DNA of 64,000 nt from Guillardia theta CCMP2712. Lineage: Eukaryota; Protista; Cryptophyta. The stretch lies in NCBI RefSeq assembly GCF_000315625.1, contig NW_005434536.1:62001-126000 (forward strand), given 5' to 3'. The notes beneath the pieces were generated by a model that saw nothing but the letters and a program-made list of their open reading frames with translations, did not search any database and was not told the DNA's origin. Of this stretch, positions 1-62,323 are shown piece by piece (the first letter of the stretch is position 1; each line of letters begins with the position of its first letter). A program made the position numbers and the translations under genes.

Positions 1-2101
1 TGCTGTCTGAATATAAGAACGAAATTCCTCTACATTGTACATAGAATGTGTACAATGTAACAACAGTTTTAGTTGATACCACTACACGTCGCAGTCTGCC
101 ACTGTTTGAATCCAATATCAAGAAAGAATTCCCGTCTTTATCCCACACCATGTCAAAAACGACATCCAAACGACTATTTGTACCTACGCCATCATCCACC
201 GATGTCAAAAGTGCAGTCTGACCACAATAACCAACAAACATCTCCACTTGTTGTGGCGTGCTGAAATCACCATTGCAGAGTACACGCATAATACACTTTG
301 AATCATAAAGATTAAAATAGATATTGTTTGATTCTGCATCAATCAAAGCAACATGTGGTCTTGTCATAGTAAAACCAGACCCGTCCGAATTGACCAACGA
401 CAATGTAAATAACTTTGATTGTTGTGTGTCATAAACCTTTAAAACAGTACCAGAGTAAGTTCCAACTACAACATATCTGTCATTTGCGCATATTTTTGAT
501 TCACCGCTGTTTTCAGCAATTGTCTGCACATCCCACAAGGAATCAATCTGGGGTCTGGGACCTGTTCCCCCGGGGCAGTACACCCCCTGCGAGCACTTCA
601 CGGCGCCGGGGCCGGAGTAGGTATTCAGGGGACATGTTGTAGATCCAAACACAATGAACTCATCGATATTGATTGCTGCAGGGTTTGCATCATTTTTGAA
701 TCCCCATACGTAACGCCCATAGATATTGCAGTCTATCGTGTGAAAATCATCTGTGCTTGGATTGAAAAGGCCACAGTATTGATTTTCTGAATAAACCTCA
801 CTGTTATTACCAATCCAGATTTCCATGTAGGCTTTATTTGCAAAACTCAATCTCGGCTTATTCACAATGTGATTAACAAAACGAACTTGACCCAAGTCAA
901 TCTCAAACCAGTACGCGGTCTGCATCGTTTGATCGCCATCTCTATCGGGTGGAAGCAAAATGGAATTTTGTAAAGCCAAAACACGATTCAATATTGTGTA
1001 TGGATTCCTTGAAATGTATTGGTTTGTCCATGTGGACCCCACATAAGCACCCACTGAACTATATTGTCGAAAGCGACACATTTCATTACTTCCTTCACCA
1101 CACTTCAACGACCAATCCATCATCCTCCCTGTGCTCGAATAGGTATTCGCGGGAGTCACCGGCGGCTCATAGTCAACCATGTAACAATCTGTGTAATTTG
1201 TACTGCCCATATACTCCGTGGTGGTGCCAGCGGGGCAGCGAAGGCAGGTATTCGTACCACTTCCATCATCATAGTATCCGATATCACATAGTATAACAGG
1301 AATCGAATAATGTTGTTCCACGTCAAATTGAGTGAATGGAAAATCGTAAACTCGAAAATCATCCAAATAATAACCCATAGTAGACCCCATCAATTTATAC
1401 ACTGTATTGCCCCCTAAGTTAAGAAAATTAAAATATTCTCGTTGCGCACTTTGAACGCCGTCAATGTAAATAAAGACATCTCCATTGTTTTCAGGTTCTT
1501 CAGAAGTGAAAACCATATGATGCCATTTTCCGTCCCTCGTCACCAAAGAAGGTATTATTGAATCTGAATAAAAACCTGCACCATATGTTGCACCAATATG
1601 CCCCTCCGTTGACATTGTAGATATTGTGAATCGATAAAATTCACTATTACCAACTCCAAGTTGAAAGATATTGTCATTGATACTTGTTCCAGCAGGTACA
1701 AGTATCCAAAAAGCTATGGAATTGCCGATTTTAAACAAATCTTCAAAATCTACCGTTGTTGGTATGAGCAACTCAGACGAAATTGGAAAATATGCTGATT
1801 TACTACCTATTAAACCTGGAGAATGTGAACGAACACCTGTATTGATTGCATTATTTCCATTGCCAGAAATATCTTTTCCCAAATCCCCCGCATCCTCAAA
1901 CTGATAACTAACCACCGGCGCATAATCCACGCACTGGCTGACAGAAGTCGCGCCGACTGAATTTGTGGTGGTCATGTGGGGGCAGCGACTACAGGGGTCA
2001 TTCCCAGTTGCCGAGTAGTATCCAATGGAGCATGTGCCAGCATCCACACTTGCAACCACGCACGCCCATAACAAGAGACACACCACAAACCTCCAACCCA
2101 T
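1..2101 (-). CDS. Large secreted/surface protein, truncated at window edge: signal peptide, Cys-rich GCC2/GCC3 (ephrin-receptor-like) repeats, LamG/concanavalin-like domain, discoidin/F5-8-like domain, NHL-like beta-propeller
   Basis: Translated by hand; absent from the ORF track because it has no stop in the window. Reads MGWRFVVCLLLWACVVASVDAG-TCSIGYYSATGNDPCSRCP...; YQFEDAGDLGKDISGNGN...DGKWHHMVFT...IYIDG...LDDFRVYD (LamG); WFEIDLGQ...EIWIGN...GRYV (F5/8-like); VGYCG...DDGVGTNSRL...DMVWDKDGNSFLILDSNSGRLRRV (NHL-like). Open for 700 codons. Confidence 0.85.
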   Translation of the reverse strand, partial: MGWRFVVCLLLWACVVASVDAGTCSIGYYSATGNDPCSRCPHMTTTNSVGATSVSQCVDYAPVVSYQFEDAGDLGKDISGNGNNAINTGVRSHSPGLIGSKSAYFPISSELLIPTTVDFEDLFKIGNSIAFWILVPAGTSINDNIFQLGVGNSEFYRFTISTMSTEGHIGATYGAGFYSDSIIPSLVTRDGKWHHMVFTSEEPENNGDVFIYIDGVQSAQREYFNFLNLGGNTVYKLMGSTMGYYLDDFRVYDFPFTQFDVEQHYSIPVILCDIGYYDDGSGTNTCLRCPAGTTTEYMGSTNYTDCYMVDYEPPVTPANTYSSTGRMMDWSLKCGEGSNEMCRFRQYSSVGAYVGSTWTNQYISRNPYTILNRVLALQNSILLPPDRDGDQTMQTAYWFEIDLGQVRFVNHIVNKPRLSFANKAYMEIWIGNNSEVYSENQYCGLFNPSTDDFHTIDCNIYGRYVWGFKNDANPAAINIDEFIVFGSTTCPLNTYSGPGAVKCSQGVYCPGGTGPRPQIDSLWDVQTIAENSGESKICANDRYVVVGTYSGTVLKVYDTQQSKLFTLSLVNSDGSGFTMTRPHVALIDAESNNIYFNLYDSKCIMRVLCNGDFSTPQQVEMFVGYCGQTALLTSVDDGVGTNSRLDVVFDMVWDKDGNSFLILDSNSGRLRRVVVSTKTVVTLYTFYVQCRGISFLYSDS

Positions 2102-2178
2102 GCTAAATTCAATCCCACACCAACAACTGATATATGTGGATACCACGGTGGGTGCAGACGAGACGGGCAACGCGAGGA

Positions 2179-60391: not shown

Positions 60392-60496
60392 TGTCGTTTT
60401 CGGTGTCTGATGCTGTGTTTTCCGATTTAAATATGATTTGGAAAGAAAGATAGGAACGGGCAAGGTGGGCGGCGGGTTGCTGATTTTCTCCCAGGT

Positions 60497-62323
60497 ATGT
60501 CGTGGAACAGCCTGGAGGAGTTCATCAGCTTCTTCATCGCTAGCCAGGAGTGCGCGCCGCTGCCAGTCCTGACGCTGCACGAGGAGAGCGGGGAGGATCG
60601 CGTGACGAACGGCTTCGATCTGCTGTTTGAGATGATCCGCCAGTCGATCTACAGCTCGGCGGCGTTCAGCGACGAGGAGAGGGATGCCATGAAGAGGAAG
60701 AAACTGGACCTACTACGAAGGCTCAGGGCTGCGCTGAAGGACATCGACACGGGTTGCTTCAAGCAAAATGGGATCAACGTGCTCTCGCACTGCTTGAATA
60801 AGGACAGTGTCTCCATCCTCAGGCTTCTTGTATTGTCCATGCTGAAGAGAACCGTCTACGCGAATTTCAAAATTCCCTTGAGTTATTTTTCACCAGAGGA
60901 TGGGGACTTCACTCCTGCTATCAAGGCTGTCGCAAAACCCCTTATTGAGGGTGGGGAAGCAAAGACTTTCCTTAGACTCGAGTATAACCTCAACAACCTG
61001 TACATCACTCTGCAGCCTCTCGACTTCAAGGTCTTCCATATGTCTACCCTGGTCAATCGTGAGATGATCAAGGCCAGTGATGAGGTGTGGGAAAAAGCTC
61101 TTGAACTTCAGGGGGATGACAATGATGCAGTGGCTGATGCATCCACCGATAAGTCGAAGAGGCGACTGGGGAAGCCTGTAGCGGAAGGGAATGTCACGCT
61201 TTACAACTTTATCAAGGCGGCCCTCCCTAACCTTAGGTACGAAAAGAGACCGTCCGCCCCCTGCATGATGTGCATGATCGTCAACTCGATGATTTCCGTC
61301 AATGTTGACAATGTAAACAGACATCGCCAGGCATGGTGCTGCTGCAATCAGACGGACTTGGCTGTCTTGAGGTGTCCTTTCAAGGACACAACCATCAACT
61401 TCACCATCTGCACCCATTACATCACCCTTCTTCACACGGAGAAGTGCGATAACAACGGTGTTATTACCTGGTGGGAGAATGAGAACCTTCTTCAGACGCT
61501 TATCGAAGATTTCCTTCTTATGGACGGACCCGAATCCGACATGCTGTACGCAAGCAACAGCTTTGTCCCTGTCAGGGCTGAAATCACCGATTGTAACTGC
61601 AACCAACGGTGGATCAAGTTCAACCCCGAGAAACGGGCCAACAAGGAAGGAAAGCTCAAAAATCTTGTGGCTAGATCCAATCTGCTTCAGCCATTCGAGG
61701 AGAAGGACGGCGACAAGCACGGTGAGCTCAATAAGTTGTTCAACCAATACTTGGTGTCCTTATTGAAGAACCCGAAGGGCATGACCAGAAACCCCGTCAT
61801 GGCCAACAAGAACAAGAACAAGGGAGGTCCAAGGCCGGAGGTGCAGGAGAAGGAGATCCGCTCCGAGCAAGATATCCCCAAGCCCCCCCGGAAGAAGCAG
61901 AGGAGGATCGATTTTTCTTCTGCTCTTGCTGTTGCTGCTTCTGCTGTTGCTGCTTCTGCTGTTGCTGCTTCTGCTTCTGCTTCTGCTTCTGCTGATCATG
62001 CTTCTGCTGATCATGCTGCTGCTATCGCTGAAGAGAAGAAGCGTGCCGATGAGGCACAGGCAGAAAACGCAAGGTTGAAAGCTATGCTTGACCAGCTCAA
62101 GGCTCAGATTGCCGCGTCTGCGGATGGACCTGTGTCTGGACCTGTGTCTGGACCTGTGTCTGGAGCTGTGGTTGAGGCTGATGCTGCTTCTGCTGCTGAG
62201 CCTGTGGCTGCTGAGCCTGTGGCTAATGCCGAGGCTGAGGCTAATGCCGAGGCTGAGGCTAGCCGTTCGTCTAGGAAGCGTAAGGCGGATCTTCGCGATG
62301 TGCCTAAGAATCCCAAGGAGTAA
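60497..62323 (+). CDS. Hypothetical protein with Cys/His cluster, NLSs, coiled coil and Ala-rich repeats
   Basis: 608-codon ORF; RKKQRR and RKRK; (AVAAS)n, (GPVS)n, (ANAEAE)n. Confidence 0.8.
   Translation: MSWNSLEEFISFFIASQECAPLPVLTLHEESGEDRVTNGFDLLFEMIRQSIYSSAAFSDEERDAMKRKKLDLLRRLRAALKDIDTGCFKQNGINVLSHCLNKDSVSILRLLVLSMLKRTVYANFKIPLSYFSPEDGDFTPAIKAVAKPLIEGGEAKTFLRLEYNLNNLYITLQPLDFKVFHMSTLVNREMIKASDEVWEKALELQGDDNDAVADASTDKSKRRLGKPVAEGNVTLYNFIKAALPNLRYEKRPSAPCMMCMIVNSMISVNVDNVNRHRQAWCCCNQTDLAVLRCPFKDTTINFTICTHYITLLHTEKCDNNGVITWWENENLLQTLIEDFLLMDGPESDMLYASNSFVPVRAEITDCNCNQRWIKFNPEKRANKEGKLKNLVARSNLLQPFEEKDGDKHGELNKLFNQYLVSLLKNPKGMTRNPVMANKNKNKGGPRPEVQEKEIRSEQDIPKPPRKKQRRIDFSSALAVAASAVAASAVAASASASASADHASADHAAAIAEEKKRADEAQAENARLKAMLDQLKAQIAASADGPVSGPVSGPVSGAVVEADAASAAEPVAAEPVANAEAEANAEAEASRSSRKRKADLRDVPKNPKE

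Follow-up and report, generated by a model that had tools for sequence, protein, structure and literature searches.

What kind of genetic element occupies positions 62,001 to 126,000 of contig NW_005434536.1 in the genome assembly GCF_000315625.1 of the cryptophyte Guillardia theta CCMP2712 is the question raised by this 64-kb stretch of DNA (referred to as the window). A first-pass annotation had proposed a mirusvirus-type segment with a herpes-like virion module, and the predicted capsid fold, gene layout and companion genes described below match Mirusviricota. The window is almost certainly part of a mirusvirus, and the virus is probably cryptophyte-borne, integrated, present in multiple near-identical copies and largely silent. 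We infer the host, the integration, latency as the meaning of the silence, and all functions. Mirusviruses bridge herpesviruses and giant viruses. The virus group and its link to cryptophytes are already published and the host lineage is culturable; a near-intact, multi-copy element in cultured cryptophytes would make nuclear replication with host polymerase testable. The claims cover the window and the relatives compared with it.

Major capsid gene and fold

The major capsid gene (Table 1) had been annotated as one open reading frame (ORF) starting at 25551. That start was rejected because the frame overlaps two real genes; the gene starts at 27327, and single-base frame changes break it at three places, near 29353, 29530 and 29795. 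All four resulting pieces align collinearly with a natural protein, P0002 (1,249 aa), at 83–95% identity, and none of the pieces contains an in-frame stop. Hence, the breaks are single-base insertions or deletions (indels). Introns were rejected as their source, as the collinearity with natural relatives continues through each of the three sites.

Of 3,579 candidates, a search with the N-terminal region identified 617 as relatives, and a profile search found 1,681 clusters at 50% identity. Blocks 1–370 and 985–1249 are common to nearly all of the capsid relatives listed, and the insert between them varies from about 80 to more than 1,000 residues. A variable insert between conserved blocks is the layout described for mirusvirus towers (PMC10132985), and the insert would sit in the A subdomain as a tower.

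The fold was approached through P0049, a compact natural relative that shares 64% and 41% identity with P0002 in the two blocks. A model built with 131 sequences had a predicted local distance difference test score (pLDDT) of 76 and a predicted template modelling score of 0.76. Foldseek comparison of this model with PDB returned phage or herpesvirus capsids or encapsulin in 34 of the 34 rows shown (best E 5e-6), and the named rows from BFVD were major capsid proteins. VIA-align gave Z 13.6 with HK97 (root-mean-square deviation 8.9, 242 aligned), Z 13.3 with encapsulin (3.5, 232 aligned) and Z 11.2 with the capsid protein of human herpesvirus 6B (5.6, 437 aligned). The model supports the prediction of an HK97 fold for the capsid family. 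The first-pass annotation had let its reading depend on this fold, which is predicted at the level of the family, via P0049. Capsid profiles gave no match to PDB and Pfam sequences, and no locus was returned by a scan of IMG/VR for capsid relatives.

Gene content and virion genes

Gene counts and coding density were computed on 62,323 nucleotides (nt) of the window, with genes picked by length and codon bias and no overlaps among those kept. Together, the 62 genes account for 55,415 of the 62,323 nt (89%), and no intron was found in the viral genes of the window. Only five of 68 frames reached the Pfam cut-off, namely those for an ephrin-like/LamG protein, a GIY-YIG protein, a PD-(D/E)XK nuclease, Snf7 and an AAA_18 kinase. 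Thus, the earlier description of near-continuous compact genes, most of them without a recognisable family, held, and the Snf7, GIY-YIG and deoxynucleoside monophosphate kinase genes that it named were confirmed (Table 1).

The assemblin-type protease that had been proposed is likewise supported. Matches of the 165-aa protein in Pfam (S78, E 9.5e-4), PHROGs and NCBIfam (E 2e-5 and 5e-4) are all below the cut-off and concordant, and the catalytic His, Ser and Glu are present. Further comparisons were made with 14 metagenome loci, denoted by L and a number (such as L001). The protease is 53% identical to the product of a gene that adjoins the capsid gene in L003 and L005. The 313-aa protein has ESM Atlas features matching those of jelly-roll capsids (0.88–0.91), which is a lead, the Atlas model being poor; its gene is kept near the capsid gene in five of the 14 loci. 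The conserved 225-aa coiled-coil protein may be a scaffold. Family searches with the conserved 461-aa protein gave no match, and neither an RtcB-like nor a triplex assignment was supported; for the former, HHalign gave probabilities of 0.3 and 0.1 in an underpowered comparison with a shallow bacterial profile.

Locus L001 keeps a syntenic block with the window. Near its capsid gene, at 841–6486, it carries together a heliorhodopsin gene, a UL92-like gene and homologs of both Cys-rich genes of the window, and it adds a C3HC4 RING protein. The UL92-like gene (Herpes_UL92) scores above the Pfam cut-off and lies next to the homolog of the CxxC-cluster gene. Snf7, heliorhodopsin, C3HC4 RING and UL92-like genes are listed as mirusvirus core genes (PMC12768974); the window itself includes Snf7, and the other three were found only in the syntenic L001.

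It is highly improbable that the window is a segment of a nucleocytovirus or herpesvirus, or host DNA in which viral genes are dispersed. A kinase and nucleases are common to giant viruses, and the capsid model matches herpesvirus capsids. However, the Pfam scan of the 68 frames revealed no Nucleocytoviricota hallmark (double jelly-roll capsid or A32-type ATPase) and no herpesvirus family, and the named relatives are from cryptophytes, not from viruses of animal hosts. Also against this reading are the 89% coding density without introns and the nature of the relatives, which are cryptophyte proteins and contigs from aquatic metagenomes.

Relatives and lineage

A FastTree phylogeny of the two capsid floor blocks was built from the window and 60 of 142 eligible relatives (61 sequences), midpoint-rooted and without labelled references. 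It places the window in a clade with support 1.0 that also includes P0002, L001, three metagenome proteins and the Hanusia phi protein P0006, which is 74% (N-block) and 62% (C-block) identical to the window. The Hanusia entry presumably derives from a transcriptome; if it does, transcription of this relative takes place in culture. On two scaffolds (191 and 176 kb), named G. theta gene models reach 89–100% identity piece by piece, and they cluster with three of the closest relatives of the window. Paralogs at 71–81% lie on three more G. theta scaffolds, or on four when the 43% level is included, and the scaffolds reach 937 kb.

The lineage probably fits the published cryptophyte clade E03 and, judged indirectly from the cryptophyte link and the gene pattern, the order Styxvirales. 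Clade E03 was defined from three cryptophyte assemblies including G. theta (Zhao et al., PMC10827195), and subclade 3 from Lake Biwa falls in E03 (PMC11465185). These capsids come from cryptophyte assemblies, just as the nearest named relatives here are from G. theta (89–99% per piece) and Hanusia phi. In contrast, the papers, in the parts available, give trees and gene density, whereas the promoters, palindromes, copy state and expression come from the present analysis. The suggestion of a probably uncharacterised lineage was therefore too strong, given cryptophyte proteins as closest named relatives and an already published E03 (PMC10827195).

Two genomes of Zhang et al. have been classed as Styxvirales, an order for which Cryptista hosts are expected and which, according to the survey authors, has no cultured representative (PMC12768974). 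Like the window, Styxvirales are associated with predicted Cryptista hosts, in marine and fresh water, and have Snf7 as a core gene (PMC12768974). Among 10 genome rows of the order, nine have an intronless jelly-roll gene and six an intronless capsid gene, 10 lack Triplex 1 and eight lack PolB. Styxvirales are further described by a trans-spliced terminase and by intron density; the viral genes of the window, a partial genome, show no intron.

Copy state and expression

Reads from four runs were mapped to 15.0–34.9 kb of the window only. In the single-organism runs X1 (2011) and X2 (2021), all 30 bins of this region were covered, and long contigs at 99% or more were obtained with many variant joints. 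At the three capsid break sites, the indels of the window are absent from the X1 and X2 contigs, none of which has the version of the window; a G. theta capsid model is continuous across all three sites and sister capsid copies are open. Since the X1 contig that spans the breaks differs by 42 of 1,071 letters and may be a sister copy, both assembly error and a decayed copy stand as sources of the breaks. In the RNA run X20, 40 of 19,816,771 records were reads on this region, 19 of them at 99% or more.

One tenable reading, which we nevertheless doubt, is an endogenous copy that is dead and decaying, cannot make particles and owes its capsid frame changes to genuine mutation. It would explain why a span of 450 nt contains three frame changes, with one more possible near 16.9 kb, and why RNA is nearly absent, and a sister copy in X1 would offer no correction of the window. 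The stop-free capsid pieces and the full length of the other genes relative to their relatives speak against decay, and the absence of the window's version from every X1 and X2 contig fits assembly error too. This reading can hold for the copy in the window while the family remains mirusvirus. The codon model changes frame near 16.9 kb and near 46.0 kb (16445–17366 and 45056–46331), where there are either overlapping genes or further indels.

An unintegrated, persistent episome of the cryptophyte culture, comparable to AurliV-1, is unlikely. Compact intronless genes, undepleted CpG (observed/expected 0.84–0.96), open sister capsid copies, retained origin-like palindromes and presence in runs ten years apart are what an episome would show. 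However, several divergent copies on long scaffolds fit a chromosome better, as do near-absent RNA and the exon-like right end of the window. There, to the right of a 171-nt tandem array, lies an exon-like ORF (MSSERKTR..., 63838–63930) that is bordered by AG and GT and in this differs from the viral genes, which lack introns. The array possibly marks the end of the element, and the exon-like stretch is possibly host flank. AurliV-1 and AurliV-2 of Aurantiochytrium are similarly mirusviruses that persist in a protist culture, either as an episome or integrated (PMC12606086); they differ in host group and order (Soporavirales), and their genes are expressed, whereas one RNA run was nearly blank here.

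Several points weigh against an integrated, silent mirusvirus as the best explanation. The capsid gene of the window is interrupted, and the N-terminal half of its own product was modelled poorly (pLDDT 44), the predicted fold coming from a relative. Order and clade were assigned by proxy, with no published mirusvirus reference sequence or hidden Markov model, and E03 is not in the tree. X20 is a single run filed under another organism code, about 6% of which was read, and the source sample may itself be X1 or X2, which are then not independent. No host–virus junction was seen, and contigs would be the same for an integrated copy and an episome. Terminase gave no Pfam or PHROGs match in the window, which is a partial genome, and no unassigned large gene has a Walker A motif; portal gave no match in the same libraries, a test of low power as these also miss the capsid; and no triplex candidate was recognised in the window. 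For the same reason, the lack of these three virion genes counts only weakly. PolB and RNA polymerase were absent from the Pfam scan of this 64-kb part of the genome; most Styxvirales would not be expected to have PolB (PMC12768974).

Promoter boxes and origin-like palindromes

Both types of transcription signal reported earlier, TATA-like promoters and AATAAA, were more frequent than in shuffled sequence. Of the 62 genes, 11 have TATA[AT]A in the 90 nt upstream (shuffle mean 2.1, maximum 7; antisense 8), and 18 of 61 have AATAAA close to their end (shuffle mean 2.4, maximum 7; antisense 13). The high antisense counts are due to short spacers that are common to neighbouring genes.

The commonest promoter box is TATTTAA, found upstream of 13 of the 62 genes (shuffle mean 0.22, maximum 3; antisense 2). 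There are 21 copies in the window, 14 of them 15–70 nt before an annotated start, and five further copies precede an alternative start or a small ORF, as noted post hoc. The box is kept before the jelly-roll gene in all five loci, of which about three are independent, and four loci have it before the coiled-coil gene. Two results count against a TATTTAA class. In eight related loci with 66 genes, TATTTAA precedes only five (shuffle mean 0.8, maximum 5) and TATA[AT]A 28, and the capsid gene, on which a late TATT box would be expected, is preceded by TATA(T/A)AA in the window and in 8/8 loci. Many TATTTAA genes have a low GC content at third codon positions (GC3; 0.47–0.62, vs 0.8–0.95 in conserved genes), namely those at 19198–21551, 33079–35582, 39744–41299, 46528–46839 and 60041–60391. 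They are possibly a recently gained or separately timed class.

[quoted passage not shown] TATTTAA fits this pattern, and in L001 the UL92-like gene adjoins two conserved Cys-rich genes; the differences are the canonical TATA box on the capsid gene and the lack of a UL92 gene in the window. UL92-like genes are already published as mirusvirus core genes. Of the herpesvirus set UL49, UL79, UL87, UL91, UL92 and UL95, a UL92-like gene was seen, in relatives. Herpes_UL49 matched none of the 21 members of the Cys-rich family. In a comparison with a 20-kb herpesvirus stretch (without UL49), the UL92-like control alone placed its target at the top (E 0.04); the herpesvirus capsid was not recovered even by the capsid profile. 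A resemblance of the Cys-rich proteins to UL49 and UL95 is our assumption and has no Pfam support. A variant box for the host TATA-binding protein explains the TATTTAA data as well.

Two near-identical palindromes, separated by 45 kb, have AT-rich cores flanked by a total of 12 AAACCGTT iterons. Like the TATTTAA box, the capsid frame changes and the near-blank RNA run, they were not part of the first-pass annotation. Iteron palindromes of this kind resemble herpesvirus oriS and baculovirus hr elements, and those of the window would act as origins. The iteron pattern was found in 13 unrelated-looking IMG/VR loci with only a short repeat in common. No paper describing mirusvirus promoter motifs was found; the TATTTAA boxes and iteron palindromes appear to be undescribed regulatory elements, and they provide handles for promoter and origin tests.

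The proposed mirusvirus would work as follows. Host RNA polymerase II in the nucleus would transcribe the intronless genes from TATTTAA and TATA(T/A)AA boxes to AATAAA ends. The capsid protein would assemble into a shell like that of herpesviruses, bearing the tower insert, and the Ser-His-Glu protease would mature it; membrane remodelling would fall to Snf7 and nucleotide supply to the kinase. Replication from the two iteron palindromes would be largely host-made. A bolder version has a culturable cryptophyte with intact, particle-competent latent copies of a mirusvirus of Styxvirales type that is poor in polymerases and replicates in the nucleus from oriS-like palindromes, and a TATTTAA class read by a virus complex (UL92-like protein plus the Cys-rich pair) ancestral to the beta- and gammaherpesvirus late machinery; we consider it rather unlikely as a whole.

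Accessory and other features

Table 1. Features of the window, with positions counted from its first nucleotide.
Feature	Position	Strand	Evidence or remark
Secreted ephrin-receptor-like/LamG repeat protein	2..2101	-	Pfam; runs off window; GC3 0.39
GIY-YIG endonuclease	5271..5645	-	Pfam E 8e-8
Origin-like palindrome 1	6479..6852		Inverted arms with AAACCGTT iterons, AT-rich core; hairpin z -20 vs base shuffles
Possible permuted papain-like peptidase	7832..8464	+	phrog_1128 E 8e-7; motifs, His before Cys
Candidate Bro/KilA-like DNA-binding protein with coiled coil	9467..10450	+	phrog_15286 only, E 0.007
Conserved coiled-coil protein, 225 aa	15719..16396	-	36–72% to genes near capsid gene in L001, L003, L010, L012
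Conserved 461-aa protein	17783..19168	+	32 relatives including G. theta, Rhodomonas salina
Conserved protein with C-terminal CxxC clusters	21607..23530	-	21 relatives including Hanusia phi, G. theta; start codon uncertain
Conserved Cys-rich 306-aa protein	23508..24428	-	61–68% to syntenic L001 gene
Probable conserved single jelly-roll protein, 313 aa	24522..25463	-	ESM Atlas features
TATTTAA box (example)	25498..25504	-	41 nt before jelly-roll gene
Multi-pass membrane protein upstream of capsid gene	26191..27249	+	Hydrophobic; 51% to L001
Canonical TATATAA box	27279..27285	+	Before capsid gene
Predicted HK97-fold major capsid protein	27327..31090	+	Relatives, fold of relative; tower-type insert of about 610 residues
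PD-(D/E)XK nuclease, GxxExxY type	35628..36593	-	Pfam
Putative capsid maturation protease, prohead/assemblin type, 165 aa	44315..44812	-	His44, Ser92, Glu119 in place
Snf7 (ESCRT-III)	49367..50083	+	Pfam E 1.1e-14
Deoxynucleoside monophosphate kinase (AAA_18)	50124..50690	-	phrog_139 E 2e-28; Walker A
Origin-like palindrome 2	51351..51714		Same arm sequence; left arm hidden by N gap 51213–51350; z -19
Candidate archaeo-eukaryotic primase	58564..59979	+	Motifs at residues 137, 183, 389; no library match
Tandem array, 171-nt unit	62441..63049		3.6 copies, 94% matches; after last viral-type gene

Two names given by the first-pass annotation were not upheld. The candidate archaeo-eukaryotic primase has fitting DxD and GGGWHVY-type motifs only, with no match in any library, and the candidate KilA-N/Bro-like protein matched a single family, of unknown function; scans of IMG/VR for relatives of each returned no locus. 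The label of permuted papain-like peptidase is likewise our assumption. A gene similar to that for the ephrin-like/LamG protein is present in the viral locus L003.

The GIY-YIG gene and a 143-aa gene lie within a 1.1-kb segment bounded by a perfect 52-nt direct repeat (5188–5239 and 6324–6375), and the segment 5188–6375 looks like a mobile insertion. The repeat duplicates the end of a 39-codon ORF, and a portion of the palindrome arm recurs at 5744–5791.

Two large proteins have further motifs. The 794-aa protein encoded at 53016–55400 includes GDCEDL and GHCAA motifs reminiscent of transglutaminase-like proteases, with no library match, and the 1,440-aa protein encoded at 11042–15364 combines a methyltransferase-like stretch (Erm, E 0.02, residues 256–326) with a long coiled coil.

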